DNA of 64,000 nt from Pirellula sp. (GTDB lineage: Bacteria; Planctomycetota; Planctomycetia; Pirellulales; Pirellulaceae): the NCBI GenBank assembly GCA_021299695.1, contig JAJTEK010000003.1, positions 2,409-66,408 of the forward strand, in the 5' to 3' direction. Positions 46,895-61,325 of this stretch are shown here, piece by piece. The position numbers were made by a program, and so were the translations under genes. Positions within the stretch are counted from its first letter, which is position 1. Each line of letters begins with the position of its first letter. The notes under the pieces were generated by a model. It was not told the DNA's origin. It saw only the letters and a program-made list of their open reading frames with translations, and made no database searches.

Positions 46895-47668
46895 CTATCG
46901 AAAAAACCTTAGAGACCCAAATCCAATGATAGGTAGCCCAGGGATCCGTTTGCCGTACTCGTGATAAGGTTCGCCGATGAACTTCAATAGTCGACGGTCT
47001 TTGAAGTAGCTCCCTGCATAAATGTACAATGTCCAAACGACTGTCAGAATCGCATGATCGAGCGTCATGACCGGGGTAAACCAGATCAGACCTAAGAAGC
47101 TCATGTAGACAGGATGCCGCATGTACCGAAAGGCCCCTTGAGTGACAAACTCACGCTTGGGCGGCTTTTGGTCTCGAAACCAATACCACCACTGGGTCAA
47201 ACCTGTTTGGTACCCAAAGCCAGTCCAATACAGACTGTAGAGCAAGCCGATCCAAGATCCGTAAAAGCAAGCCAAGAGGACCTGTTCTGTCCAACCCGTT
47301 GCGTGCCAGATCTCCATCGGCATGCGTCCCCAATAGTGGAACATCGCAAGCAAGCTCAAGCAACTTGTCATGCAGTGCAAGCACCCTAGCAGACCGCTGG
47401 GTATCCATTGCCGCAACCATCTCGAGGTCGGTGGTGCGAGCAAAATACTATGCGGAACAGCAAAGCAAACCGCAAGCAACGTATCTACCATCCAGGCTTG
47501 TCGGTACTCGCTCCAGCCGCCATAACGCAAAAACAAAAACAAATAAACTACCGTCCACAAAAAAAGCATCTGGGTTCCTATCCCAAATGCGGTCCCGGCT
47601 AGCCTGCCTAATCGACGATACAGAGTCGAGCCGGAGAACTCCTGCACCTGAACGCTTGCCTGACTCAC
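46895..47668 (-). CDS. ICMT/MddA/nurim-like integral membrane methyltransferase
   Basis: FAVPHSIL, GYQTGL, RHPVYMSFLGLIWFTPVMTLDH; multi-TM. GTGA overlap with the upstream stop. Confidence 0.75.
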   Translation of the reverse strand: MSQASVQVQEFSGSTLYRRLGRLAGTAFGIGTQMLFLWTVVYLFLFLRYGGWSEYRQAWMVDTLLAVCFAVPHSILLAPPTSRWLRQWIPSGLLGCLHCMTSCLSLLAMFHYWGRMPMEIWHATGWTEQVLLACFYGSWIGLLYSLYWTGFGYQTGLTQWWYWFRDQKPPKREFVTQGAFRYMRHPVYMSFLGLIWFTPVMTLDHAILTVVWTLYIYAGSYFKDRRLLKFIGEPYHEYGKRIPGLPIIGFGSLRFFR

Positions 47669-48504
47669 CGATTACCTCTCTCTGCTAGGAAACATCCATA
47701 CTCCATCGCTCCAGTTCGATACGCATCGAGGATCGCTTGGAAGTGGTCCAAAAACAGCACATGGTTAGCCCCGAAGAGCTTTGCCAAATGCCTAATTCCA
47801 GTTCGGTTGACTCGCTCCAAGCAAATCTCCCATGTCTTCTCAACCTGCTTGGTCCAAAGGGATTGGTAAGTGACTTTTAATCCGGCATCCTCGAACCATT
47901 GGCAGTAGTCGGCTTGTGTTCCGAGAGACGGGCAAAACATGCCACGGCAGACTTTCTGTGTCAAAGCGACCTGTTCCTGACTCAGTGGACCATCGCCAGC
48001 CAACCAAGCGCACAGCGCGAATCGACCTCCGGGTTTAATCCAAGTTGCAGCTTTGCGAAAGAACGCGGGCTTGTCGAAGAAATGCTCGGTGCATTCGATG
48101 CTCCAGACGACGTCTGCCGAAGCTGGCTCGAACGCGATCTTCTCGGCATCGGCACAAAGAAACTTCGGACGGGGCTTGCCCCCCCGAAGCGTCGCGGCAC
48201 TAGCAGCGTACATTCGCTGGACAGGACTTAGGGTCACCCCGGTGACTTGGCACTGGATATTGCGAGCAAGCCAAACGCTCGAGCCTCCCATACCGCAACC
48301 GATATCGTAGACAGTGCTCGAAGGGGATATCCTTGCGATTTTTGCAAGTCTTTCGGTCAATTGAATCTGAGCGCGCGCAGAGCTCTCGCCCCCCTCCCAA
48401 TATCCGTGGTGTATGTGGGGACCCCAAAACAACCGGTAGAAGGGAGTGATAATGTCGTAGTGATTGCGAATCACTCCCTTGGCTACATCAGGAAATTCAA
48501 TCAT
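47665..48504 (-). CDS. Class I SAM methyltransferase, gamma-tocopherol/sterol-MT-like
   Basis: HYD..W.PHIHHGYW, YDIGCGMGGS, TGVTLSPVQ, WSIECTEH..DK. Start set to ATG 48504, 3 bp after the YceI stop. Confidence 0.85.
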   Translation of the reverse strand: MIEFPDVAKGVIRNHYDIITPFYRLFWGPHIHHGYWEGGESSARAQIQLTERLAKIARISPSSTVYDIGCGMGGSSVWLARNIQCQVTGVTLSPVQRMYAASAATLRGGKPRPKFLCADAEKIAFEPASADVVWSIECTEHFFDKPAFFRKAATWIKPGGRFALCAWLAGDGPLSQEQVALTQKVCRGMFCPSLGTQADYCQWFEDAGLKVTYQSLWTKQVEKTWEICLERVNRTGIRHLAKLFGANHVLFLDHFQAILDAYRTGAMEYGCFLAERGNR

Positions 48505-48506
48505 CG

Positions 48507-49235
48507 CTAAGGTACCACCCATAAATCGCCTTGAATCACCAATTCATCTTTGATCCCGACGGCACCAAAGGCTTTGGTATAAGGCTTGATACCAAAATCG
48601 GTCTGTCGAATCGTGAACTTGCCTCGAACATGATGCCAGCCATCCTTGATCTCCAAGTCGCAAGGGAACGTCACTCGCCGAGTGACTCCATGCAGCGTGA
48701 ATTCACCTTCGAGCTGGTACTCGGGTAGCCCGCGCGTCGATTGCTTGTCCGTTTTCTTCATCGTGGCCTTTTGGAAGACCGCCTCGGGGAAACCCTGGAC
48801 ATCCAGAATTTCCTTGCCCAACATGTTCTGGTTGACTTTTCGCACCGTCGCCGCATCGATCTCTGCATCGATTGCAAACACCTTGCGAGCCGTAGGGGTG
48901 TCGGCGACAAACGACTTCATATCAAAGACCAAAGAAACGGGTTCTTGAACATCGGCCTTTAACCGACCGCTCTTGAGCTTACCCTCGACCCCATGGGAGT
49001 GCCCAAGGTTGTTGGTTTTGTCGACAAAGATGTACACGCGACTGAACTCCAGATTCAAGTCGCCGGATCGGTACTCCACTGATTTTCGCGCTTGGCCTCC
49101 GGCGTCTTGCCCAAGGCATCGATGCGTCGGTTCAGGTACTACAAGGATCGAGAATCCCACGCAGAGGTTCATCAAGATTCCAACAGCAAGTCCCCTGTGG
49201 CTTCGGAACATCCACTTGAAAATGTTAGGCAACAT
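48507..49235 (-). CDS. YceI-family (polyisoprenoid-binding) exported protein
   Basis: Signal peptide; HSHGVEG, LDVQGFPEA.F, GEFTLHGVTR, GKFTIRQTDFGIKP. Confidence 0.8.
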   Translation of the reverse strand: MLPNIFKWMFRSHRGLAVGILMNLCVGFSILVVPEPTHRCLGQDAGGQARKSVEYRSGDLNLEFSRVYIFVDKTNNLGHSHGVEGKLKSGRLKADVQEPVSLVFDMKSFVADTPTARKVFAIDAEIDAATVRKVNQNMLGKEILDVQGFPEAVFQKATMKKTDKQSTRGLPEYQLEGEFTLHGVTRRVTFPCDLEIKDGWHHVRGKFTIRQTDFGIKPYTKAFGAVGIKDELVIQGDLWVVP

Positions 49236-49361
49236 CCTTGCATCCGCATTCCTGAGAAGGTTTTTAATCGGCCCTTTTCCTTTGGGTTTCGCTTAGGAGT
49301 ATAAACGTGTTACGTCACCTCGCAAAATCCCATTGCAGGGCCTAGCATCGAAAAACGTTTT

Positions 49362-49381
49362 AAAACACGACATAGTGTTTT
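49362..49381. promoter_or_regulatory. Inverted repeat in the AT-rich divergent promoter region of the PKS locus
   Basis: AAAACAC-gacata-GTGTTTT, immediately preceded by the palindrome AAAACGTTTT (49352-49361). Confidence 0.3.
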
Positions 49382-49534
49382 TAACAAGTTAGAAAGGTTC
49401 ATAGCCGCAAGGGACCGTTTTATTGACGGCAGTCACTTCGAGACTTATCCCGAGGTTGCACTTATCCGTTGCCATCGAACCTGTTATCTTGGAATTCGAG
49501 TCCGGACCGTATTCTGCGAGGGATCCTTGCATAC

Positions 49535-50299
49535 ATGTTGTTTTTTCCTGACCTGAAATCCAGGCACCTTGTCCCCGAGCAGATGGACGATCCGAACCTA
49601 CCGGCTTCAGATCATCAACTTGCGCTGCGTGGACTTCGTAGGATCAATCGATTCTCGGGAACCGTTTCTTATCTTTCTTCGACGATCCTCGATTTGGCCC
49701 GACAGGAAGATCGCGTATGCACGGTGCCTGCCTCGGGCGAAATGCCTTGGGTGCTCCTGGACATCGGATGTGCGAACGGGGAAAACCTCATCGCTCTTTA
49801 TCGGCAGTTAGCAAAAAGAATCGCGGTCCGTTGCATTGGATGGGACATCAGTCCCTATGCGATTCAAAGCGCCAAGGAACAGGCGTTATCTTCTGGGCTC
49901 TCGGAGGAACAAGTTCGATTCGAGGTTGTCGATGCCCTTGGGCCAATCGATCCAGCACCTCAAGCGGACATTGTCATGAATTCGTTGTTTATGCACCATT
50001 TCGAGGAATCGGCGGTGGTGCGTTTGTTGACCCGCAGTGCCCAATTGGCACGCGTGGCCGTCGTGGCCGACGATCTGAATCGCACGCAACTGGGGTGGTT
50101 CCTCGCTAAAACTGGTTGCTGGCTGCTATCTCGCTCACCGGTCGTTCACTTCGATGGTCCGCAATCGGTTCGGGCCGCATTTACTTGTGCGGAAATCGCT
50201 TCGATCGCGGAACGCGCTGGGTTAGTGGACGCTCACCTGATGAGGCATTGGCCCGAACGCTACGCGTTGGTGTGGAGAAGGCAACCTGTGAGATCATGA
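49535..50299 (+). CDS. Methyltransferase-domain protein of the type III PKS cluster
   Basis: EQMDDP, LRRINRFSG, LDIGCANG, SLFMHHF, DGPQSVRAAFT. Start set to ATG 49535. Confidence 0.85.
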   Translation: MLFFPDLKSRHLVPEQMDDPNLPASDHQLALRGLRRINRFSGTVSYLSSTILDLARQEDRVCTVPASGEMPWVLLDIGCANGENLIALYRQLAKRIAVRCIGWDISPYAIQSAKEQALSSGLSEEQVRFEVVDALGPIDPAPQADIVMNSLFMHHFEESAVVRLLTRSAQLARVAVVADDLNRTQLGWFLAKTGCWLLSRSPVVHFDGPQSVRAAFTCAEIASIAERAGLVDAHLMRHWPERYALVWRRQPVRS

Positions 50300-51552
50300 G
50301 TTCCCCGAGCGCGCCCCCTGATTCGTTGAGTTCGACGATCGGCTACGAATCGGCTATCGAGTGTATCTGGGATGTGATCATCGTCGGGGCCGGAGTTGCT
50401 GGTTGTGCAACAGCCATCCTGGCCGCGAAATCGGGTTTGAAGGTACTCTTGGTCGAGTCGAAGCCCTTCCCTCGCGAAAAAGTCTGTGGCGGTTGCTTGA
50501 ACGTACGAGCCCAGGATGCCTTGCAAAGACTAGGCGTGGATCACGAGCTCCAAGCCGCCGGATCGGTAAGGCTTAGCGAACTGCATGTCCAAGTCAAAGG
50601 TGTAGGGCGCATTTGGCCGATCCCATCACTCTTGAGCGTTAGGCGATCGACACTCGATACGATCTTGGTGCGACGCGCGATCGAATGCGGAGCTGATTTT
50701 TTGCAAAACACCACTGCGGTGTTGCCAGCCGAACATGGCCATGTCCATGATCTGATGGAGGTTGAGCTCAGATGCAGCGATGGCTTGCCGCCGTCGGATC
50801 CCTTAGGCCAATTCAAGCCCAAAGCGGCCCAAGCGTGTTGTTTGGTGATTGCCGCTGGCTTGAACCGTTCGGCGTTACGACTCCAGCGGGATTGGCCTTC
50901 GGACATAGCGCCTGATTCCCGCATCGGAGTCCAATCTCTGGTGTCGCTTGAGAGTCTTTCTGAATCGGCGCCCGAATTGCATGGAATGCTCGATAGCAAT
51001 CGCGGCCGTCTGCACATGCTCTCGTCCCATCATGGCTACGTCGGAATTTGCTTAACGGATGGTGATCTCATCGACTTTGCTGCTGCTTTGGATCCCAAGA
51101 GAGTATCGAGTGCAGGTGGAATTGGTCCAGCGGTCTGCGAGATCCTCGAAGAATGCGGAATCAAGACACACCGAGCTTTTGTCGATTGCCATTGGATGGC
51201 CACGAGTCTTTTGACACGGACGTCCAAGATCGTCGCTAAGCGAGGAATTTTTCTAGTCGGAGATGCATTGGGCTACATTGAGCCCTTTACAGGCGAAGGG
51301 ATGTCATGGGCGTTGGACAACGCCGAAACGCTCGCTCCGAATCTTGTTCGGATCGTGCAAGATCCCCGAACCAAAACCCAAGCGGTTAGGGACTGGGAAG
51401 TTTATGTCCAGAAGCAGAGGCGATTCCGGCACCGGGTATGCCGTTGGGTCGCAAAGCAAGCGAGGCATCCGACCCGCTCGCAATGGGTAGTCCAAGCTTG
51501 TCATTGGATCCCTGGATTCCGAACTCGCATTTTGAAAAAGGCGGTACAGTGA
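50296..51552 (+). CDS. FAD-dependent oxidoreductase (geranylgeranyl-reductase-like family)
   Basis: DVIIVGAGVAG, FPREKVCGGCL, LVGDALGYIEPFTGEGM. ATGA overlap with the upstream MTase. Confidence 0.88.
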   Translation: MSSPSAPPDSLSSTIGYESAIECIWDVIIVGAGVAGCATAILAAKSGLKVLLVESKPFPREKVCGGCLNVRAQDALQRLGVDHELQAAGSVRLSELHVQVKGVGRIWPIPSLLSVRRSTLDTILVRRAIECGADFLQNTTAVLPAEHGHVHDLMEVELRCSDGLPPSDPLGQFKPKAAQACCLVIAAGLNRSALRLQRDWPSDIAPDSRIGVQSLVSLESLSESAPELHGMLDSNRGRLHMLSSHHGYVGICLTDGDLIDFAAALDPKRVSSAGGIGPAVCEILEECGIKTHRAFVDCHWMATSLLTRTSKIVAKRGIFLVGDALGYIEPFTGEGMSWALDNAETLAPNLVRIVQDPRTKTQAVRDWEVYVQKQRRFRHRVCRWVAKQARHPTRSQWVVQACHWIPGFRTRILKKAVQ

Positions 51553-52700
51553 TGTCCAATAGGCAATCCGGCGCGGTGATTCTTGGGACAGGCACGAGGA
51601 TACCCGAGGGGGTGATTGACCAAGAGGTCGCCGCTGGGGTGATCCAACGCCTGGGCCTGACCCAACGCTGGAACAAGGTCCTTCCGAAACTGTACCTTAA
51701 GTCTGGGGTTTTGCGTCGAGCGAGCGTTCTACTGAGCGCTGCGGGAGACGATCCCGATTCGCGGCAATCCTTTTACAAGCCGCCGACAGCGGCCGCACCG
51801 TTTGGACCGACCACCGGCGAACGCATGGGAGTTTACGCGAAGCACGCTGGACCTTTGCTCACAAAAACCTGCCAAGCTGCGATACAACGAGCAGGAATTG
51901 AAGCATCGGCGATCACGCAATTGATCACCGTTTCGTGCACAGGATTCTGTGCTCCGGGTCTCGATCATGCTCTGTTTGAGTCGCTAGGCTTGAGCTTGAC
52001 GACACAGCGATCGCACATCGGTTTCATGGGGTGCCATGCGATGGTAAACGGTCTGCGAGTTGCTCAAGCGATCGCGGAATCCGATCCTAGAGCGGTTGTG
52101 TTGGTAGGAGCGGTTGAACTGTGCAGCATCCATCAGCAGTACACAGAAGACCCCGAGCAAATTGTCGCCAATTCGCTCTTCTCCGATGGAGCTGCAGCAG
52201 CGGTCGTTACCGACGCCTCGGCAGTCGTCCGGCAACCAGGCCAAGTTCACTTGCGCATCGTCTCGTCTCTATCGTTGAAGATCCCCGACTCGGCCGATTT
52301 GATGACATGGAAGATCGGGGATCATGGATTTCAAATGACCCTCTCGTCGCTGGTGCCCTCACGCATCGAGGAGAGGCTTAAAGATCCTATCGAAAAATGG
52401 CTTTCCGGACTGGGAATATCGATTGAGGACATTCGACAATGGGTTGTTCATCCAGGAGGTCCCAGAATCCTCGACTCGGTCGACAAGGCGATGGGGTTAG
52501 ACGAAACGAAACTCTCCGCATCCCGTAGGACGTTAGCCAACTACGGAAATATGTCCTCCCCGACGATCCTCTTTATCATCGAGGAGATCCTGTATTCGAG
52601 CACTGGGGAGCATTACGGTCCTAGGAATGGGTATTGGTTGGTGTTCGGTTTCGGGCCCGGCCTACATGCTGAGATTTTGCTTCTGGAACTAACCGAGTAG
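51552..52700 (+). CDS. Type III polyketide synthase (chalcone synthase-like)
   Basis: Cys-His-Asn triad in FMGCHA, VHPGG, YGNMSS; also VSCTGF, ELCSIH, LFSDGAAA, FGPGL. TGATG overlap. Confidence 0.93.
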   Translation: MSNRQSGAVILGTGTRIPEGVIDQEVAAGVIQRLGLTQRWNKVLPKLYLKSGVLRRASVLLSAAGDDPDSRQSFYKPPTAAAPFGPTTGERMGVYAKHAGPLLTKTCQAAIQRAGIEASAITQLITVSCTGFCAPGLDHALFESLGLSLTTQRSHIGFMGCHAMVNGLRVAQAIAESDPRAVVLVGAVELCSIHQQYTEDPEQIVANSLFSDGAAAAVVTDASAVVRQPGQVHLRIVSSLSLKIPDSADLMTWKIGDHGFQMTLSSLVPSRIEERLKDPIEKWLSGLGISIEDIRQWVVHPGGPRILDSVDKAMGLDETKLSASRRTLANYGNMSSPTILFIIEEILYSSTGEHYGPRNGYWLVFGFGPGLHAEILLLELTE

Positions 52701-52706
52701 AGACGA

Positions 52707-55220
52707 TTAGTTGTTGCGTTCCGAGACCATCGTCGTGAGTTGCTCGCCTGACATTCGGTAGGCAGCTTCATGGGGGCAAGCATAAACACAGCGTGGGGTA
52801 CCACCGATACTCTTGCACTGGTCGCAGGTCGTGGCCCGTTGTCGGACAACGGGTATCTTTTGGTTCCCCTCTTGGCGGTATCCGTCTTGATGCCCATACA
52901 TGGTGATGTTTCCATAGGGGCAATTCGTCGCGCATTGCCCACAGCCGATGCAGTTGTCTTCGATGACGATCTCTTTGTCCCCCTCTCGGAAGATTGCATT
53001 GACCGGGCAACCGACCAAGCAATAGGGATCGGTACAAGAGCGACAGCTCGTGGCGACCAGGAAGTTCTCGAAGCGAAGTCCTTCGCGTACCAGACGGGTT
53101 TGCCCCTCGTGTGCATCGGCGCAAGCTTTCGAGCATTCATCGCAACGGGTGCATGACTCAAGGTCCAGGACTAGAAGGCTCTGAGCGTTGTAGAGCCCCT
53201 GCGCCACGAAATTCGCCTTGAGCGTATTTTCGGAGACATCCCGAGTCGCATCGTGGCGCAAGAGTGTCTCGGCGCGATCCAGGAGCGTTTTTCGAAACTC
53301 GGAATTTGCTTCGGTCAGTTCCCGGATGATCGAACCGGGGATCCGAACCAACTCGACGTGGTCCAACGCTGTGCAACTTGAGGTGCGAATCCCCGGGGCA
53401 AAATTCAAAGCTTGCAATTCATCAGCCAATTCGCTTTCGTAGAGTTTTGATAAAACGGCCACTTCCCCAAACACCCCGACTTCTCCTTCGATATTGGGTG
53501 GCCCCATGTAGGTAAGGACCTGATCCCGCATCCCTTGCATCCGGGAAAACTTCACGTAACCGAGTCGAATCATGTAGACTTCATCACCGAGTTCTCCTTC
53601 TTTGAAGATCGGTTGACCTGGCTCGACACTGATCAGCTCAACACCCTGTGCTAGTCGATGCAATTCGATTGGCGTTAGAGAGCGACACAGTGGGGTACGG
53701 CTAAGGTTCGAGTTCAGAGCATGTCGGCGGTAGGCCTCGTTGAGCAGTTTGAGGCTAGCGCCGTTGCGTTGGAGCATGTACAGGACGTTGCTTCCGATTT
53801 CGATGACCTCGGATTCCTCAACGGCCACGACCGTTGCGCTTCTTGGGCTTCGATTCAAACATGCCATCTCTCCGAGGATGACATCCTCGGGCCCTCGAAA
53901 AAGTCTTGATTGGCCCTTGGGATTCGAGGTGTCTGATCCGGTGGCCAAGGTGGCGACACCCTTGGATCCGCTTGTGAACATGCGATTGAAAAAGCCTTTT
54001 CGTTCTGTTGACTTATTGGACTTCTTCACGCCGGAGCGAGAGATTTGAATTTCGAACCTTCCGCGTTGGATCAAAAAGGCGGTCGAACCGTATTCGCCTT
54101 CTTTGCATAGGATGTCGCCGGGTTGCAGGATGCGGCGTACGCAAGCTCCGCCGTTGAACTGTAGAAACTTGTAGGGAATCCCGCTGAAGATAGGGATGTC
54201 GAGCATTTGTTCGGGAGAAAGTACTTCGGTGGATGGATCGCCGCTTTGGCTGGTATTTAGATTCAAGTCGTCGGACAGTTTGGCAATTTGCTTTTCGATG
54301 ACCAAAGGTCGAAATTGCAGCGCATCGGTAGGGCACGAGATCACGCACTCACCGCAGGAAACGCATGAGCTTTCGAGCATGGGTAGGTTGGTATCGAAAG
54401 CGATTTTTGTTGGGTAGCCTTTGCCATCGCGGGCCATGACATCGTTGTGTTTGATTTCGTTGCAAGCACGCGTGCAGCGCTGGCACAAAATGCACGCGTC
54501 GTGGTCGACCGAGATGATTTCCGAGGAAGGATCGACGCCCCTTTTTCCGGCGAGCTCGCTCGGAGGGTACCTCAATTGGATCGGGTCTGGCACAAATCGA
54601 TGAACGAGGTTTTTCAACTCGTTGGGTTCGTATCGCTTGGGCGAGTCGACCAAGCTCTTGCGATCCTGTTGGCTCAGGTGTTCCGATGCGAGCAGTTCGA
54701 CGATCACTCCGACGGAATCCTTGAGGATCTCGACCGTCTTCGGGTTTTCGGTGCTTGCCAACGTAGTGATGACCATCCCCTCTTTGACATGGTAAGTGCA
54801 CGCAGAGACCAAGTCTTTTTTGACCCGTCCACTTTTGCGTTGCTCTTGGATTTCGACCATGCAAACACGGCAAACACCGACGGGTTGAAGATGCTCACGA
54901 TGGCACAGCACAGGCACGGGATTGACGTCCTGAACGCTTCGCACATACATTCGAGTTACCGCATCATAGATCGTCGTCGGTCTTGGAATGACCTCTCCTC
55001 GATCGTTGACCAATACAACTCCTTGCGAGTTTCGCAGCGGAACTGCTTTCTTGACCACCATCGCTTGGCCGTCGATGGTGATACGGACATCCAATTCCAA
55101 ATCGGTAAGCGAGGCATCGGCACGGCGGATCAGTTGGCCGTCGACATCGCGAGCAAAGAGTGCTTCCTCGCGGGCGCTGATGTACTCATTGCCATCCAAG
55201 GGGTCTTGATTTGAAGCCAT
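52707..55220 (-). CDS. Fe-S / cyclic-nucleotide-binding fusion: NuoG-N-like [2Fe-2S]+2[4Fe-4S], two cNMP domains, C-terminal 4x[4Fe-4S] domain
   Basis: LCH..VGVCRVC..SAC; CILCQRCTRAC and CVSCGECVISCP; GEMA..PRSAT; GEVAV..RTSS; CTRCDECSKAC, CRSCTDPYCLVGCP, CIGCGQCATNCP, CDQC..CVYACP. Confidence 0.88.
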   Translation of the reverse strand: MASNQDPLDGNEYISAREEALFARDVDGQLIRRADASLTDLELDVRITIDGQAMVVKKAVPLRNSQGVVLVNDRGEVIPRPTTIYDAVTRMYVRSVQDVNPVPVLCHREHLQPVGVCRVCMVEIQEQRKSGRVKKDLVSACTYHVKEGMVITTLASTENPKTVEILKDSVGVIVELLASEHLSQQDRKSLVDSPKRYEPNELKNLVHRFVPDPIQLRYPPSELAGKRGVDPSSEIISVDHDACILCQRCTRACNEIKHNDVMARDGKGYPTKIAFDTNLPMLESSCVSCGECVISCPTDALQFRPLVIEKQIAKLSDDLNLNTSQSGDPSTEVLSPEQMLDIPIFSGIPYKFLQFNGGACVRRILQPGDILCKEGEYGSTAFLIQRGRFEIQISRSGVKKSNKSTERKGFFNRMFTSGSKGVATLATGSDTSNPKGQSRLFRGPEDVILGEMACLNRSPRSATVVAVEESEVIEIGSNVLYMLQRNGASLKLLNEAYRRHALNSNLSRTPLCRSLTPIELHRLAQGVELISVEPGQPIFKEGELGDEVYMIRLGYVKFSRMQGMRDQVLTYMGPPNIEGEVGVFGEVAVLSKLYESELADELQALNFAPGIRTSSCTALDHVELVRIPGSIIRELTEANSEFRKTLLDRAETLLRHDATRDVSENTLKANFVAQGLYNAQSLLVLDLESCTRCDECSKACADAHEGQTRLVREGLRFENFLVATSCRSCTDPYCLVGCPVNAIFREGDKEIVIEDNCIGCGQCATNCPYGNITMYGHQDGYRQEGNQKIPVVRQRATTCDQCKSIGGTPRCVYACPHEAAYRMSGEQLTTMVSERNN

Positions 55221-55246: not shown

Positions 55247-57118
55247 TTATCGGTCGTTAGGGTGGAAGTACCGCAGGTACGTTCGAAACGGTTCGCTGGC
55301 TACTTGTCCCAACCCGCAGATGCTGGTTGTGCGCATGATGCGTGAGAGCAGGTTGGCGTGTTCGATGAACTGCGGTACGATGCTCTCGGAGCTTTTTGCA
55401 TTCGCAAGTTGCTGAGCCATATCGACTATTTTTCTCGAGCCCAATCGGCAAGGTACGCACTTGCCACAGGACTCACGTTGATAAAACTGGCTGCATGCGA
55501 TCGCTTGATCGAGCAGATCCGCCGTGGCACCGTAAACGACGATCCCGGCCCCGAGCATGAATCCGATCTCGCGCGAGGCATCGATATCCAGAGGCAGCAA
55601 TCGGATATCGGTGGGAGTTTTTGATAACGCGGGATACTTAAAGTCGGCCGTTTCCTTCCCTTCCTTGTCGGTAAGTTTCGGCAGCCGAATCGAATTCTCG
55701 GGTAGCATGGCTGGTAGAAAACCTCCGGATGGGCCGCTGAGGGCTACTGCCAGCAAGGGTACTCCATCCTTCATTCCACCTGCGTAGTCGTCGATCAATT
55801 CCCCGAGTGTGATACCGCAGGGCACCTCATAGGCACCCGGTCGATTCAAATCGCCACTGATGCTGAAATACCTTCTCCCTTTGGAGCGATTGCGACCTGC
55901 ATACTTGTACCAAAGGCCTGGCGTTTTATTTGTTGCCGATGGATCTTTTGCTTGCTCTTTGAGCAGGTTACCTTCGGAGGGTTCTTTCAAAAGTATCGAT
56001 GGAACCCATGCAAAGGTTTCGACGTTGTTGAGAATGGTCGGTTGGTCGTAAAGGCCGTTGGTCTGCAATTCAGGCGGACGATTTCGAGGTTCCGATCGTT
56101 TTCCCTCGAGCGCCTCGATCAACGCGGTTTGTTCACCGCATACGTAGCCGCCTGGACTGATGAACACCTCGAGTCGAAACGTTCGGCCGCTTTGGAAGAT
56201 ATTGGATCCCAAGGCTCCGAGTTGCTCGGCTTGTTCGATCGCTTGCTGGAGGCGATCTATTTGTTCCTGGTATTCGTGTCTGATATAGATGTAGCCTTGT
56301 TTGGCTCCGCTTACCAATGCGGCCATCGTCATGCCTTCGATCACCAAATGGGGAGCAGCAAGGAGGATCTCGCGATCTTTAAAGGTTCCCGGTTCGCTTT
56401 CATCGGCGTTGCACACAACGTATTTGGTCTCACCAGGGGCTATACGAGCTTCTTCCCATTTTGAAAACGCAGGGGCGCCGGCACCTCCCATGCCTAGCAA
56501 ACCGGCATTCTTGAGGGCTTGAATCACTCGATCGTTGCTAGGATCGAGTAAAAAACTCTTGACTGCCGCATATTTCTGTTGGATCGTACCGCTGCGGTAG
56601 CAATCGATTTCCGAACGGTCCATCGTAGCCTGAGCGAGTGCTTGATCCGAATCACCTTGGAGATCCACACCGTCGAGAACACTCTGGACAATTCGGCGGT
56701 ATTCATCGACCTTACGGCCGACGAAGAGCGATTGGCCGTGTGCCGTCGCATTCGAATTGGAGCCCTCGATGATCATCGCCGGTGCACGGTCGCAACGACC
56801 AAGGCAGGAGGCTTCATGGACGTGCAAATTCTCGTGGCCGACTTGGTCCGCAAGTTCCTGGAGTTGCTGGGCGATCTGGACCGAACCTCTCAGACGACAG
56901 CTCATGTCCCGGCAGATGGCGACCCTGCACTTGGCGGGTGCTTGCCGACTGTAGTGTGGAAAGAAGCTCACCACGTCTTGGATCACACGGGACGGTTCAC
57001 CGACCTGACCGGCGATCCTCGCGATATCGTTGTCGCCGATGTAACCTTGGCGATGCTGCACTTCTTGGAGCATCTTGGCGATCCGGGTTCCCACTTGTCG
57101 TTCAACGAGAGATTTCAT
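55247..57118 (-). CDS. NuoE-NuoF fusion (NAD(P)H diaphorase module: [2Fe-2S], FMN, [4Fe-4S])
   Basis: CRDMSC..CLGRC (NuoE-type); GMGGAG, NADESEPGTFKDR, YIYIRHEY, YVCGEQTAL, NNVET, ESCGKCVPCR..CGLG (NuoF-type). Not in a complex I operon. Confidence 0.9.
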   Translation of the reverse strand: MKSLVERQVGTRIAKMLQEVQHRQGYIGDNDIARIAGQVGEPSRVIQDVVSFFPHYSRQAPAKCRVAICRDMSCRLRGSVQIAQQLQELADQVGHENLHVHEASCLGRCDRAPAMIIEGSNSNATAHGQSLFVGRKVDEYRRIVQSVLDGVDLQGDSDQALAQATMDRSEIDCYRSGTIQQKYAAVKSFLLDPSNDRVIQALKNAGLLGMGGAGAPAFSKWEEARIAPGETKYVVCNADESEPGTFKDREILLAAPHLVIEGMTMAALVSGAKQGYIYIRHEYQEQIDRLQQAIEQAEQLGALGSNIFQSGRTFRLEVFISPGGYVCGEQTALIEALEGKRSEPRNRPPELQTNGLYDQPTILNNVETFAWVPSILLKEPSEGNLLKEQAKDPSATNKTPGLWYKYAGRNRSKGRRYFSISGDLNRPGAYEVPCGITLGELIDDYAGGMKDGVPLLAVALSGPSGGFLPAMLPENSIRLPKLTDKEGKETADFKYPALSKTPTDIRLLPLDIDASREIGFMLGAGIVVYGATADLLDQAIACSQFYQRESCGKCVPCRLGSRKIVDMAQQLANAKSSESIVPQFIEHANLLSRIMRTTSICGLGQVASEPFRTYLRYFHPNDR

Positions 57119-57121
57119 GAT

Positions 57122-58702
57122 TTAGCGTTTGTGGGATTGGATGATTTCAAGAAGCTGTTTTTGGAAATCGTCTGGATCGAAGTACCGAGAAGCTCGGTAG
57201 GGCATCTGCTGAGTCCGCGTCCACATCATCGTCGGAAAATCCCAGTCGTAAGGTTCGGAGGGTAGGACGATTTGACCCGGAATTTCGATCTCTCCGAGGG
57301 CTCGGTTTGCAATTCTCCATTGCACGGCAGACTCCCAGGAGGGTCCGTGGGTCAATGAAGGCAAGGTCCTAGCATTCCAGGCCTCTCGGATCGGTGGGAT
57401 CTGACCGGGCATGACGATCGGATATTGGCATTGGAGAATCGGCTCAAGGAGCTCGAGCATCGCGTCGATGTGCGTCCGAATTTCGTCCGTTTGTCCCGTT
57501 GGATGATTGGCAAGAGGATTCAAAAGCAATTGCTTAAGGGGCTTGGAGTGCGAAACCCAGGATTGCACACTCGGGTGCGAGAAAGGGATCGGGGATTCTC
57601 CCATGGGACCGCAGGGTGCGTCGGCACTGGTCGAATCGGTATTGGAGGAATGGGTATTGGGAAATTGGGTGAGAGCAAGAGCCAGATCGATATGTTCGAG
57701 GTACCATCCGTCCCATTCGGCAAGCGGTTGGCTTGGTGGGTTCGTTTTTCGATTTGCCTCGATCGGATGGTGGCAGCTTGTGCAGCGATGCTCGGTCAAC
57801 TCGGGCCATTCGGATTTGCCCAGGCGATTCTTAAGGAGTTCGAGGCGTTGTTTCGCATTGACCAATTTCCCAATCCGCCAAGTATCGAGCGATTCGGCCA
57901 CGGGGTTTGCAGTAATGATTGGTCCGACGTTGGGCTTGGCCATCGCTGCGGCGACATTATTGTTGTCCCACCAGTGTTTTGGGTAACGGGTCAAAAAATT
58001 CGTCAATTCGAAATAGGTCGGAGGGTGGCCGGCGGCCATCAATTGGTGAGAAACCTCTTGTTGGCCCAGGGGCATGGAAGGTTGGTCGTTGAAATGCACC
58101 TCCTCGGTGCGGCCGAGTTGGCCGATATGGCACGATCCGCACACCTGAGCAAGCTGCCAGGCCGATTCGGTATTGACGCGTCCGTTGGCCGATGGATCTT
58201 TAAAACGCTCTATTCCAAGAGCTTTCCATGAGTTTGAAAGGTGGGAGTCGTCCCAATGGATCGCCGAACCGTGGCAGGCTTGGCAATCGACACCTTGAAT
58301 TCTTTGAGTTCTTGGAGCTAGTTCGCTCGCATGGCACGACACGCAACGGGTTTCTAAAAACTCAAGGTAGACTGGGGCTTGGGTCGTTTCCGGGAAGGAT
58401 TTGTCATGGTCCCAGAGGGCTTGGACGATTCGTTGAGAATCGGCGCTCAGCAGCCGAGCATAAGCGTTCGCATGGGGATCGTGCTGGAACCATATTTCGC
58501 CAGATTGGTTCCAAAGGAAAGAGGTTCCAACGGTGTTTCCGTGGCAGTTGGTTGAGTTGCAGTCTCGCTTGACGAAGAAATCGGGATTCGCACGATGGAT
58601 CGAAGGGGATTGGGCCCGAGCTACGGCTAGGGTGGCAACCGATAGGGTGGCAAGCCAACCAAAAAGAACGGTGTGAAAAACACGGGGCCAAGTCTGGGTC
58701 AT
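57122..58702 (-). CDS. Exported multiheme cytochrome c (4 CxxCH + 1 CxxxxCH)
   Basis: Signal peptide from ATG 58702 (ATGA overlap); CNSTNCH, CVSCH, CQACH, CGSCH, CTSCH; also MAAGHPP. Confidence 0.85.
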   Translation of the reverse strand: MTQTWPRVFHTVLFGWLATLSVATLAVARAQSPSIHRANPDFFVKRDCNSTNCHGNTVGTSFLWNQSGEIWFQHDPHANAYARLLSADSQRIVQALWDHDKSFPETTQAPVYLEFLETRCVSCHASELAPRTQRIQGVDCQACHGSAIHWDDSHLSNSWKALGIERFKDPSANGRVNTESAWQLAQVCGSCHIGQLGRTEEVHFNDQPSMPLGQQEVSHQLMAAGHPPTYFELTNFLTRYPKHWWDNNNVAAAMAKPNVGPIITANPVAESLDTWRIGKLVNAKQRLELLKNRLGKSEWPELTEHRCTSCHHPIEANRKTNPPSQPLAEWDGWYLEHIDLALALTQFPNTHSSNTDSTSADAPCGPMGESPIPFSHPSVQSWVSHSKPLKQLLLNPLANHPTGQTDEIRTHIDAMLELLEPILQCQYPIVMPGQIPPIREAWNARTLPSLTHGPSWESAVQWRIANRALGEIEIPGQIVLPSEPYDWDFPTMMWTRTQQMPYRASRYFDPDDFQKQLLEIIQSHKR

Positions 58703-60249
58703 TGGGTAAATTCCCCTCCGGACCCCGTTACTCCTGCGAGTCCTAATCCGGTCGGTTCGTCTTTCGGTCCGTGATCGTGGTATCGGTGGCAATCGATGCA
58801 ATCGGCTCGGGCGATATTTTTCACCCCTGCGAGTTGCGATTCCTTGCGCTTCGCCTCATCGACGATGTGGCATACTTGGCATCCTTGGATTCCATCGATA
58901 AGGACATCGCTGGAGAGACCACCTAAGAGGGACTTGGGCTCTGATGGGGATAACGCGTTCGAATCGAGATGGATTTTGTGGCAAACATCGCATTGAACAT
59001 TGATATGTGGACCGTGTGAGAAGCTCGCTTTCGTGAGCCATTGAGTGGGCAGAGCGCTCGGTGCGACGATGGACTCAGGGTTGTTGGCCGCAGCGAGATC
59101 GGTTGCGGGTTGATGGCACTTGGAGCAAGCGTAGGTTTTGAAGATCTCGGTCTTTGCAAGCGGGTTGTTCTCCTTAATGAGCTCGATGAGATCTTCGCCC
59201 GACGCGGTCCCTGCAATTCGAAGTCGGTTTTCCTCTTCGACGGACGATTCGGTTGGATTGGAGGTACTTTGCAAACGCTCGGATCGAGCGAGGCGTTGCT
59301 GTTGGCTCGTAGCGACGACATCCAGAAGGTGTTGATTGTCTTTGAAATCGAGTTTATGAGGTAGCTCCAATTGGTGGCACGCTTCGCAGTGCTTGCTAAA
59401 CTCGACCGGCTTGTAGAGGACGTGCGCGTTGGTTTGACGGTCTAGAGAATTGGTTACTGGGATTGAGTTGGGACTTTCAAGAGTTCCGTATCCGGCTATT
59501 GGATGGTCTCTTTCGTGGCAATCGCCACATGTCAATTGAATAGGATCGGAGCCGTTTTTCGGTTTTGTGTATTGATCTCGGAATGCGGGGGGAAGCGAGT
59601 CCCAGGTTTTGGCGGATCGATCGCCAGGTTTCAGGGCTTGTCCTGGCCGCATGTGTTGGGTGTGGCTAAATTGGATGGTCCCTGGATCTTTGGCGAGGCC
59701 TTGGAAGTCTGGATGTCCAGGAATCCCGTCGGTGGAGTCGAAGCTGGTCACTTTGGAGAGAGGTCGATTCGCATCTTTGACGAATTGAGCCAGGTCTGCG
59801 TGGCAACGGACGCAGGATTCATCGGCGATGTCCAACAGGTTATGGTTGATCCCCAAATGCTCGTGGTGGCATTGAACGCACGATTCGAGTGCGAGAAGGT
59901 TGGGTTTCGTCGCAGCCGGGTAATGGTCTGCCATCCTGTGACACGCGTTGCATCTTCGGTTGTTATCTGCAATGACCTCAGGGGACCTTGCGAAACTTCT
60001 GGTGTTGATGGGGCTCCATGGAGCGTGGCATTGCTCGCATCCTGTTTCGTTCCAGGCATGGTGGGCTTTTGAGAGTGTACCGGTACTGAGTTGTTTGGCC
60101 GCGGAAGGGGTCAGCATCCAAAGACCGTAAAGGCCCCCGAGGATCAGACCCGCCCAGCCGAACCACCTCTTCCAGAGAATCGAGCGATCCTCAGACGATG
60201 TGTAGTTACGGTCGATTCGACGTGAACGCTGCTTACCTGTGATCGCCAT
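58699..60249 (-). CDS. Membrane-anchored decaheme cytochrome c
   Basis: N-terminal TM helix; 10 motifs: CEQCH, CNACH, CVQCH, CVRCH, CGDCH, CEACH, CSKCH, CDVCH, CQVCH, CIDCH. Confidence 0.9.
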   Translation of the reverse strand: MAITGKQRSRRIDRNYTSSEDRSILWKRWFGWAGLILGGLYGLWMLTPSAAKQLSTGTLSKAHHAWNETGCEQCHAPWSPINTRSFARSPEVIADNNRRCNACHRMADHYPAATKPNLLALESCVQCHHEHLGINHNLLDIADESCVRCHADLAQFVKDANRPLSKVTSFDSTDGIPGHPDFQGLAKDPGTIQFSHTQHMRPGQALKPGDRSAKTWDSLPPAFRDQYTKPKNGSDPIQLTCGDCHERDHPIAGYGTLESPNSIPVTNSLDRQTNAHVLYKPVEFSKHCEACHQLELPHKLDFKDNQHLLDVVATSQQQRLARSERLQSTSNPTESSVEEENRLRIAGTASGEDLIELIKENNPLAKTEIFKTYACSKCHQPATDLAAANNPESIVAPSALPTQWLTKASFSHGPHINVQCDVCHKIHLDSNALSPSEPKSLLGGLSSDVLIDGIQGCQVCHIVDEAKRKESQLAGVKNIARADCIDCHRYHDHGPKDEPTGLGLAGVTGSGGEFTQ

Positions 60250-60278: not shown

Positions 60279-61325
60279 TTACATGTAGCGAAGGGATTGA
60301 ATGATATGGACGATCAGCAGGACACCGAGCATGACGCTGATGCCTGCGTGAAAAGCGATCCAGCGATGCAGCCAGGCGTGTGCCATCCGCTGCGCGTCGA
60401 ATTGCAGTCGCTCTTCGACGGTTGACTGCAAGGCCATGAGGATTGGGAAGGCGGAGTCGGAGCAAGAGGATTGAAGATTTTTGAACCACTCTTGGGTCCG
60501 TTGCAGGTTGCCAATCGGCGAGCGACTTGTAGATCTCGTGCTGTTTGGGACTAAGTTCCTCAGCAAGAAAGGTTCGATCACCAGCGTATACTGTTTCCAT
60601 ATTTCAATGCGATCTGCCCCATTGAGATCATCGGCCAAGTCTTGTCCAAAAGTTGCCCGTTGCGGATCCCGGCGCTGCCTTGCCCCGACCACGATTGCGT
60701 TGCTCTTGTCGAGCCCCGGCGTCGCATCGGCGTTTCGCATCGAAGGAACAGACAGCCCCGATTTCAGGGCCGATAGTTGGTCCTCGAGAGCGACGAGTTT
60801 TCCGGTGTTGGGTGGTTTGGGGCCCAACGCAACGGTGAGCATTTGCCGATTCTCCAGTGCGCTGAGCAAGGAGACATCATCGATTTGGCTGGGGATTGTT
60901 TCCTGCGGAAGGTTGCCGAGCATCCAACGTGGGATAAAAACCTGCATCACCCAGCCAAACACTCCGCTACTGAGCACCAGAACCAGAAGCGCCATCAAAA
61001 GGGTGGTGAAGGTACCGCCGAAACGAAACCCTGAGTGGATGAAGGCTAGGGGGCCGCAGGCGAGTCCGAGCCAAAGATGGTAGGCGACCCAGAATTTCGT
61101 ACGCCCGAGTTTATATTTTCTAAGCCGTTTCCGTGGCCAAAGCAGCAGCTCAAAGAGAATGATTCCGGCTGCAATACTTCCGACGACCAATCCCGCCAGA
61201 GAACTTCCGGTCGCAGGGCTACCTTTTGCACCCAAGGAATACTGCCATAGGCCACCTCCGAGGATCAGGAGGATCGCTAACGCGATCGGGCCGTAATGGA
61301 GGTGCATTTTGCGAGCCAGCAACAC
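60279..61325 (-). CDS. Putative di-heme b membrane electron-transfer protein (ferric-reductase/NOX-like His spacing)
   Basis: About 5 TM helices; two helices each carry H-x13-H (YHLWLGLACGPLAFIH; FHAGISVMLGVLLIVH). Confidence 0.7.
   Translation of the reverse strand: MLLARKMHLHYGPIALAILLILGGGLWQYSLGAKGSPATGSSLAGLVVGSIAAGIILFELLLWPRKRLRKYKLGRTKFWVAYHLWLGLACGPLAFIHSGFRFGGTFTTLLMALLVLVLSSGVFGWVMQVFIPRWMLGNLPQETIPSQIDDVSLLSALENRQMLTVALGPKPPNTGKLVALEDQLSALKSGLSVPSMRNADATPGLDKSNAIVVGARQRRDPQRATFGQDLADDLNGADRIEIWKQYTLVIEPFLLRNLVPNSTRSTSRSPIGNLQRTQEWFKNLQSSCSDSAFPILMALQSTVEERLQFDAQRMAHAWLHRWIAFHAGISVMLGVLLIVHIIQSLRYM

Follow-up and report, generated by a model that had tools for sequence, protein, structure and literature searches.

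The 64,000-nucleotide window described here, the whole stretch of Pirellula sp. contig JAJTEK010000003.1 that was analysed, encodes a protein, P0001, in which two cyclic nucleotide-binding (CNB) domains lie between two iron-sulfur (Fe-S) modules. P0001 is interpreted, with moderate confidence, as the cytoplasmic Fe-S connector of a conduit of the porin-cytochrome cluster 4 (PCC4)/Ptd type that would run from NAD(P)H to the periplasm under the control of cyclic nucleoside monophosphates (cNMP). The conserved gene cluster to which P0001 belongs probably serves to move electrons from NAD(P)H through the membrane and on to multihaem cytochromes. More tentatively, the binding of cNMP to the CNB tandem may directly open or close the path from the NAD(P)H module to the polyferredoxin and thereby control the outward delivery of electrons from NAD(P)H to periplasmic multihaem cytochromes, both in Planctomycetota and in the other phyla with Ptd/PCC4 clusters. 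The set of domains and clusters, their conservation, the links by operon and fusion and a canonical first cassette are read from the sequences, whereas we infer that haem b and cNMP are bound, which way the electrons run and that the path is gated.

In the proposed mechanism, a NuoE-NuoF fusion would oxidize NAD(P)H at flavin mononucleotide (FMN) and pass the electrons on via the N3 cluster. The electrons would then travel (i) along the HoxU-like part of P0001 via its [2Fe-2S] and its two [4Fe-4S] clusters, (ii) via four further [4Fe-4S] clusters along the HydN-like C-terminal part, which would dock on the cytoplasmic face of the membrane protein P0122, the probable holder of two haems b, and (iii) from these haems to an anchored decahaem and a soluble pentahaem cytochrome in the periplasm. 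The CNB tandem, tethered by long helices between the Fe-S modules, would serve as the cyclic-nucleotide receptor that controls the hand-over to the polyferredoxin, possibly by shifting the position of its entry cluster or by exposing it. Outward flow of this kind, assisted by the membrane potential, would drain both NAD(P)H and the membrane potential, and this drain would give a rationale for a fast post-translational gate.

The gene and its domains are placed as follows.

52707..55220, minus strand: P0001, an Fe-S/CNB/Fe-S protein of 837 residues and long-form relative of PtdE (open reading frame (ORF) and profile searches)
54741..55088, minus strand: NuoG/HoxU-type [2Fe-2S] domain, residues ~45-160, with C106, C117, C120 and C141 (Pfam Fer2_4; partial NCBIfam HoxU/NuoG)
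54621..54698, minus strand: degenerate N5 site, residues ~175-200, with His181 kept and three Cys lost (alignment to 7q4v chain A)
54309..54515, minus strand: 2x[4Fe-4S] ferredoxin domain, residues 236-304, with C243-253 and C286-296 (Pfam, Cys pattern, conservation)
53721..54218, minus strand: CNB-1, residues ~335-500, with a variable disordered loop of ~45 residues (395-440) and a canonical phosphate-binding cassette, PBC-1, at residues 450-466 (window 53823-53873)
53241..53720, minus strand: CNB-2, residues ~501-660, with an expanded cassette, PBC-2, at residues 584-618 (window 53367-53471), which has a 17-residue insert
52761..53177, minus strand: four-cluster ferredoxin of the HydN/DmsB/NrfC type, residues 682-820, with 16 Cys (NCBIfam, Cys pattern, PDB sequence matches)

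P0001 has 33 cysteine residues, 28 of which are assigned to seven cluster motifs and are invariant in an alignment of 68 homologues (the close set, 48-82% identity). The [2Fe-2S] site has the CX10CX2CX20C spacing of NuoG/HoxU, and the N-terminal [4Fe-4S] pair (C243/246/249/253 and C286/289/292/296) consists of two CX2CX2CX3C motifs. The C-terminal ferredoxin has the groups C690/693/696/700, C726/729/734/738, C757/760/763/767 and C799/802/811/815; these 16 cysteines are retained in 97-100% of a wide set of 94 representatives, one per 50%-identity cluster, that covers the core formed by two CNB domains and the ferredoxin (CNB2-ferredoxin). The Pfam matches of P0001 include Fer2_4 (1.6e-7), cNMP_binding (5.3e-23, over three stretches) and many Fer4 models, while the partial NCBIfam matches are to HoxU, the N-terminus of group A6 [FeFe]-hydrogenase, DmsB and HydN. 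PF13247 scores 18 bits, under the cut-off of 26.2, and relatives of P0001 score above this cut-off. An earlier note on this DNA had read the relay as [2Fe-2S], 2x[4Fe-4S], cNMP-1, cNMP-2 and 4x[4Fe-4S], an order borne out by the Cys motifs and the Pfam/NCBIfam matches, and had described a DmsB/NrfC-like C-terminal Cys pattern, which is present as 16 Cys in four groups. It had also called the CNB domains inserted; this describes the linear order and is not a statement on history. The CNB2-ferredoxin occurs alone as well, without the N-terminal Fe-S part.

The N5 position of P0001 has lost its three Cys ligands. H181 aligns with the His of the HX3CX2CX5C motif in the HydA1 chain of PDB 7q4v, and the three Cys are missing. 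The loss of N5 with only the His left (EHLSQQD), as put forward earlier, agrees with the alignment: the string lies at residues 180-186, only H181 remains, and no Cys motif occurs at this position in 68/68 homologues. In complex I, electrons go from N1b to N4 directly; thus, the loss of N5 need not break the relay. By analogy, the loss would be compatible with an exit via ferredoxin-type clusters, as in [FeFe]-hydrogenases, and would not be compatible with the NuoG route through N5. P0001 is devoid of a signal peptide, a twin-arginine translocation (Tat) motif and a transmembrane (TM) segment and is, therefore, predicted to be cytoplasmic. Near its N-terminus, residues 18-32 (window 55125-55169, minus strand) form the motif EExLFARDxDGQLIR, which is invariant family-wide, is modelled at a predicted local distance difference test (pLDDT) score of 32-40 and may serve as a peptide to which NuoF or a different partner docks.

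The 16-Cys pattern of the C-terminal part is shared with HydN, HycB, DmsB, NrfC and FdnH, and sequence matches to HycB3, FdnH and NrfC are found. FdnH provides a precedent for the proposed docking, as this four-cluster ferredoxin docks on the dihaem-b FdnI and is a sequence relative of the C-terminal part of P0001 (1kqf_B). Unlike the HydN/FdnH-type proteins, P0001 is predicted to be cytoplasmic without a Tat signal, its ferredoxin is preceded by the CNB tandem, and its membrane partner is from another family with no solved relative. Polyferredoxin nanowires used in comparison are those of HDCR (7qv7) and WorABCSL (9mqx, PMC12318220), and the WorS-type ferredoxins link to a NuoG-like subunit (PMC12318220).

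The CNB tandem of P0001 is most similar in fold to the cyclic-nucleotide receptors of protein kinases A and G. PBC-1 (GEMACLNRSPRSATV, residues 450-464) has the canonical residues G450, E451, R460, A462 and T463, all of which are invariant in the close set, with a G-to-R distance of 10 residues in 68/68 homologues; it aligns residue for residue with the cassette of yeast Bcy1 (GELALMYNSPRAATVVA). Among the 94 representatives, G450 is conserved in 100%, E451 in 98% and R460 in 93%. PBC-2 (GEVAVLSKLYESELADELQALNFAPGIRTSS, residues 585-615) has G585, E586, R612 and T613. Of these, G585 and R612 are invariant in the close set, and conservation in the wide set is 98% for G585, 86% for E586 and 82% for R612. 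The G-to-R distance of PBC-2 is 27 in P0001, which makes an insert of 17 residues, and ranges from 21 to 33 across the family. For the CNB tandem, the regulatory subunit of protein kinase A (PKA-R) and protein kinase G (PKG) are the top Foldseek matches (E ~1e-14), and the matches include nucleoside-binding PKA-R subunits of trypanosomes (6hyi, 6hyq). Three claims of the earlier note agree with these data: the intact cNMP-1 cassette (GEMA..PRSAT) is canonical, with its constant spacing and Bcy1-like alignment, the insert of ~15-20 residues in the cNMP-2 cassette (GEVAV..RTSS) measures 17, and the PKA-R-like tandem has PKA-R/PKG as its best structural matches. P0001 shares with the CNB-A/B domains of PKA-R and PKG the tandem layout with connecting helices and the canonical PBC-1, and differs in having an Fe-S domain as its output in the place of a kinase, 17 additional residues in PBC-2 and a disordered loop of 45 residues in CNB-1. 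The residues that would contact cNMP thus appear, from their conservation, to be under strong selection.

The CNB pair is always immediately N-terminal to the four-cluster ferredoxin, the junction at which the donor module would have to pass electrons on. CNB domains of this kind resemble those of CRP-family regulators, and a CRP/FNR-type transcription factor could be considered on this ground; no helix-turn-helix (HTH) domain is matched by Pfam after CNB-2, where the ferredoxin comes next instead, and this identity is given only a very slight chance. An alternative that leaves the wire as proposed is that the CNB domains sense another ligand (a nucleoside, cyclic dinucleotide, 2',3'-cNMP or redox cofactor), or that only CNB-1 binds and CNB-2 is a structural adaptor. 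The insert of 11-23 residues in PBC-2 across the family, the conservation of E586 and R612 below PBC-1 levels and the trypanosome PKA-R among the fold matches are in its favour, as is the 67-86% conservation of Cys372, Cys454 and Cys616, a hint at an extra redox or metal function. PBC-1, by contrast, holds every canonical cNMP contact (G-E ... R-S/T-A-T) at 93-100%, while CAP-family sensors of other ligands (FNR, CooA, CprK) typically lose these contacts. This alternative, in either form, is rather unlikely.

All 68 close homologues have the three cysteines C372, C454 and C616 of the CNB domains, and in the wider family their conservation is 67-86%; one is inside PBC-1 and one just past PBC-2. 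These residues could form a redox-sensitive or metal site, as judged from their positions and conservation. Their assignment as ligands of an eighth, bridging cluster was dropped given their only 67-86% conservation in the wider family. The host genome encodes three class III nucleotide cyclases (PF00211) and three further loci for CNB proteins. On host contig C149 (3839-5730), a class III nucleotide cyclase (705-residue ORF) adjoins another CNB-domain protein (573-residue ORF), and the two are a separate cNMP signalling pair of the host genome.

The full P0001 was modelled by AlphaFold2 with the 68-sequence alignment. In the model, the CNB tandem is flanked by long helices (residues 305-326 and 640-681), which form direct connections from the tandem to the final cluster of the N-terminal module on one side and to the entry cluster of the C-terminal module on the other. 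Such flanking helices of CNB domains are the parts that shift when a ligand binds to PKA, PKG or Epac. A ligand-driven shift or unmasking of the polyferredoxin entry is, thus, plausible, because helices of a type that is mobile in these proteins join the tandem to both Fe-S modules. The earlier note had inferred that the tandem could alter the spacing between clusters and so switch the flow of electrons, a reading that is partly supported.

P0001 is the last of five close-set minus-strand genes, with intergenic gaps of 29, -4, 3 and 26 nt. The four genes upstream of P0001, in operon order, are the following.

60279..61325, minus strand: P0122, a five-helix inner-membrane protein of 348 residues, similar to the PCC3/PCC4 inner-membrane protein (IMP) and PtdF, putative dihaem b (motifs, 53 homologues)
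58699..60249, minus strand: membrane-anchored decahaem cytochrome c of the PtdG kind (10 CXXCH; hydrophobic anchor at the N-terminus)
57122..58702, minus strand: exported pentahaem cytochrome c (4 CXXCH and 1 CX4CH)
55247..57118, minus strand: NuoE-NuoF fusion of 623 residues, the NAD(P)H/FMN input module (Pfam 2Fe-2S_thioredx, Complex1_51K, SLBB and NADH_4Fe-4S; NCBIfam nuoF_fam, 1.2e-103)

The same five genes occur in the same order in Rubripirellula lacrimiformis, with a P0001 homologue of 49% identity, and the order is also present in two further loci, L004 and L007. In the metagenomic protein P0139 (1483 residues), NuoE, NuoF and the full architecture of a HoxU-like part, two CNB domains and a four-cluster ferredoxin (Fd4) form one chain. 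Because P0139 fuses both partners and synteny is kept, NuoEF and P0001 are predicted to function as one unit. The pair resembles the HoxEFU diaphorase of bidirectional [NiFe] hydrogenase, the NuoEFG N-module and FdsABG in having NuoE, NuoF and a NuoG-N-type [2Fe-2S] with two [4Fe-4S] clusters. It differs from these systems in the loss of the His-ligated N5, the absence of a catalytic partner and the fusion to two CNB domains and a four-cluster ferredoxin. The N-terminal part of P0001 also resembles the HydA/NuoG-like subunits of bifurcating complexes (7t2r, 8a6t, 9mqx), which would be expected if the operon encoded a flavin-based electron-bifurcating enzyme of the Bfu/HydABC type. However, NuoEF ends with the NADH_4Fe-4S (N3) domain at residue 620 of 623 and has no extra C-terminal ferredoxin domains, and Pfam finds no hydrogenase, formate dehydrogenase (FDH) or WOR catalytic partner among the operon genes. 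Bifurcation is accordingly regarded as highly improbable, on a par with the transcription factor.

The single CX4CH of the pentahaem cytochrome is CNSTNCH. The start codon of its gene (ATG at 58702) shares an ATGA with the stop of the decahaem gene. Sequence searches of the PDB with the deca- and pentahaem cytochromes gave no matches, and promoter and terminator scans at the operon were at chance level. In locus L021, NuoE and NuoF are separate genes. At L021 9084-11617 (GCA_036704275.1), two overlapping genes of 317 and 538 residues were considered as a natural split of the wire protein; the break falls inside the second 4Fe-4S motif and is probably a frameshift or assembly error, and this locus was left out of the argument.

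The membrane partner P0122 belongs to a structurally uncharacterised, putative dihaem-b family. WX3HX13H motifs are on two of its helices and an SGXXG motif on another; among 53 homologues (30-80% identity), no substitution occurs at W79, H83, H97, S120, G121, G124, W322, H326 or H340. AlphaFold predicts a confident all-helical bundle (pLDDT 87.5, predicted template modelling (pTM) score 0.81). By the positive-inside rule, a 180-residue loop would be cytoplasmic, with H83/H326 near the cytoplasmic and H97/H340 near the periplasmic face. The two H-X13-H pairs on two TM helices are reminiscent of the transmembrane domain of NOX and ferric reductases (FRD), as is the layout of a dihaem conduit driven by NAD(P)H from the cytoplasm to the outside. 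The likeness of P0122 itself is limited to the H-X13-H spacing: it has five helices and a 180-residue cytoplasmic domain, with a separate Fe-S protein as the proposed donor, and Pfam gives no match, including FRD (PF01794), even at E = 10.

The window operon appears, from its gene content, to be a planctomycete variant of the known, uncharacterised PCC4/Ptd cluster type. He 2017 defined the putative porin-cytochrome clusters PCC3 and PCC4 by a five-helix IMP with WX3HX13H on TM3 and TM5 and SGXXG on TM4 (PMC5566968). Planctomycetes are among the carriers of PCC4 subgroup II, where the IMP gene is preceded by a pfam13247 Fe-S gene and the cytochromes have 4, 5 and 10 haems; cyclic-nucleotide domains are unmentioned (PMC5566968). 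The ptdABCDEFG cluster encodes an FAD/NAD(P) oxidoreductase (PtdC), a tetrahaem cytochrome (PtdD), a ferric-reductase-like membrane protein (PtdF) and a decahaem cytochrome (PtdG), and its function "remains completely unknown" according to the preprint that describes it (10.1101/2023.11.21.568154). The window operon shares with Ptd/PCC4-II (i) a five-helix protein with two WX3HX13H and an SGXXG (PtdF/IMP), (ii) a decahaem (PtdG), a tetra-/pentahaem cytochrome and an NAD(P)-linked oxidoreductase, in a cluster reported in Planctomycetes, and (iii) a protein that, like PtdE, combines CNB domain(s) and a 4Fe-4S ferredoxin. The equivalence of P0001 and PtdE is drawn from this architecture and from the ptdD-E-F-G order in locus L026, PtdE being compared by its description. 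P0001 differs from PtdE by the additional N-terminal HoxU/NuoG-like module of [2Fe-2S] and 2x[4Fe-4S], while the operon differs from Ptd in its donor (a NuoE-NuoF fusion, not the FAD/NAD(P) oxidoreductase PtdC) and its rearranged gene order, with no porin or PtdA-like gene evident. Nucleotide gating of PCC4/Ptd is neither proposed nor are PBCs discussed in PMC5566968 or 10.1101/2023.11.21.568154, and literature searches for CNB with NuoF, polyferredoxin or ferredoxin retrieved no mechanistic study and no gating proposal. The cluster type is already in print (PCC4 subgroup II; ptd).

Across Planctomycetota, the conserved core of the cluster is, as far as gene neighbourhoods tell, the CNB2-ferredoxin, the membrane protein and the decahaem cytochrome. 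In loci L023-L027, from other Planctomycetota families, a short CNB2-Fd4 protein (~500-950 residues) without the HoxU-like part is encoded by a gene that adjoins or overlaps the downstream gene of a WX3HX13H membrane protein, and a decahaem gene lies beside the latter. In a sample of 301 Planctomycetota genomes, a membrane-protein match is within 8 kb at 37 of the 66 CNB/Fd4 sites, most within 600 bp. The donor of locus L027 is not NuoEF and is instead a protein with FHA, FAD_binding_6, NAD_binding_1 and plant-type [2Fe-2S] domains. Two unrelated NAD(P)H dehydrogenase modules, NuoEF and the FNR-like protein of L027, are thus predicted to feed one core. At L027 4899-8565, in a planctomycete genome of ~9.5 Mb, the FNR-like donor (538 residues) and the CNB2-ferredoxin (671 residues) both begin with FHA, which suggests phospho-threonine control of the junction between donor and polyferredoxin. 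Signalling domains (CNB, FHA) gather exactly at this junction. This distribution bears on the alternative in which the CNB domains only provide a constitutive scaffold or a means of dimerisation and electron flow is not regulated at the level of the protein. CRP-type proteins do dimerise through such domains, but a mere scaffold would not keep ligand-contact residues invariant, and FHA is found as another signalling domain at the same position, on donor and wire protein alike, in L027. A purely structural role is, thus, held to be improbable. Short-form clusters are also adjoined by giant multihaem cytochromes (1200-1430 residues, 9-10 CXXCH) with LVIVD beta-propeller repeats (L023 8456-12745, L024 9911-13702 and L026 1727-5320), which may be a terminal periplasmic or extracellular component.

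Several findings weigh against P0001 as a cNMP-controlled connector to the periplasm. The AlphaFold2 model of P0001 is poor (mean pLDDT 65, pTM 0.55), with the C-terminal ferredoxin unfolded (pLDDT ~30), and its quality is too low for inter-cluster distances to be read. The expanded PBC-2 may not bind cyclic nucleotide. Dihaem-b binding by P0122 is probable on the evidence of its motifs alone; Foldseek of the P0122 model against the PDB gave no significant match (best E 0.67), which leaves a NOX-like fold unsupported. No porin was detected by Pfam in the five operon genes and their flanks, a result obtained with no dedicated beta-barrel search. In addition, He 2017 modelled PCC4, which is found in the genomes of Fe(II)-oxidisers, in the opposite direction, as electron uptake to the quinone pool (PMC5566968). 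On this model, an external donor such as Fe(II) would reduce the cytochromes, and electrons would pass inward via the membrane protein to quinone or NAD(P)+; NuoEF-type modules are reversible in principle. Bioenergetics argues otherwise: inward transfer would build membrane potential, the reduction of NAD+ at about -320 mV needs a donor well below this value, and Fe(II) or cytochromes c could not drive it without an energy input, of which the cluster encodes none. The two unrelated NAD(P)H-dehydrogenase modules on the same core fit NAD(P)H as the donor, and the host looks like a heterotrophic freshwater relative of Pirellula. Inward conduction is, on these grounds, assigned a low probability, and outward export from NAD(P)H through P0001 is retained as the preferred reading.

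The P0001 family is large, with more than 2000 matching database proteins. The best 120 of these matches are all ~830-860 residues in length with an identical Pfam set, and their database names are automatic ones such as 'cyclic nucleotide-binding domain-containing protein', or the mislabel 'HndC'. Close relatives are from freshwater Pirellula-like metagenome-assembled genomes, the cultured carriers include Rubripirellula, Rhodopirellula, Roseiconus, Novipirellula and Aporhodopirellula, and more distant members are from Phycisphaerales and Candidatus Riflebacteria. In an unrooted FastTree phylogeny of the CNB2-Fd4 core, the long and short forms cluster (14 changes compared to 26.7 in shuffles), with many of the 'short' rows probably being 5'-truncated metagenomic genes; this unrooted tree gives no polarity for the fusion of the N-terminal Fe-S part. 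In one long-form homologue, the metagenomic P0129 (1058 residues), the four-cluster ferredoxin is followed at the C-terminus by a NUDIX hydrolase domain, a further nucleotide-related addition within this family.

As a rule, electron-transport chains are controlled via gene expression, substrate supply or supercomplex assembly. If the proposed gating is true, a second-messenger receptor within an Fe-S relay would be a new and fast layer of respiratory control, and P0001 would be the first second-messenger-gated protein electron wire. The PCC4/Ptd family is widespread in environmental bacteria and has been considered in connection with extracellular electron transfer and with the cycling of Fe and N. 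The window variant identifies the cytoplasmic partner as NAD(P)H, and the two non-homologous dehydrogenase modules point likewise. The gating hypothesis is unusual and is directly testable in planctomycetes that are in culture; R460 and E451 of P0001 and H83/H97/H326/H340 of P0122 are concrete sites for tests.

The operon is flanked by a TPR-sulfotransferase gene and a type III polyketide synthase (PKS) cluster. The synthase is convergent to the operon (window 46895-52700), and its region also holds an FAD oxidoreductase, methyltransferases, a YceI-like protein and an ICMT-like membrane methyltransferase; this region looks like an alkylresorcinol/pyrone-type lipid cluster.

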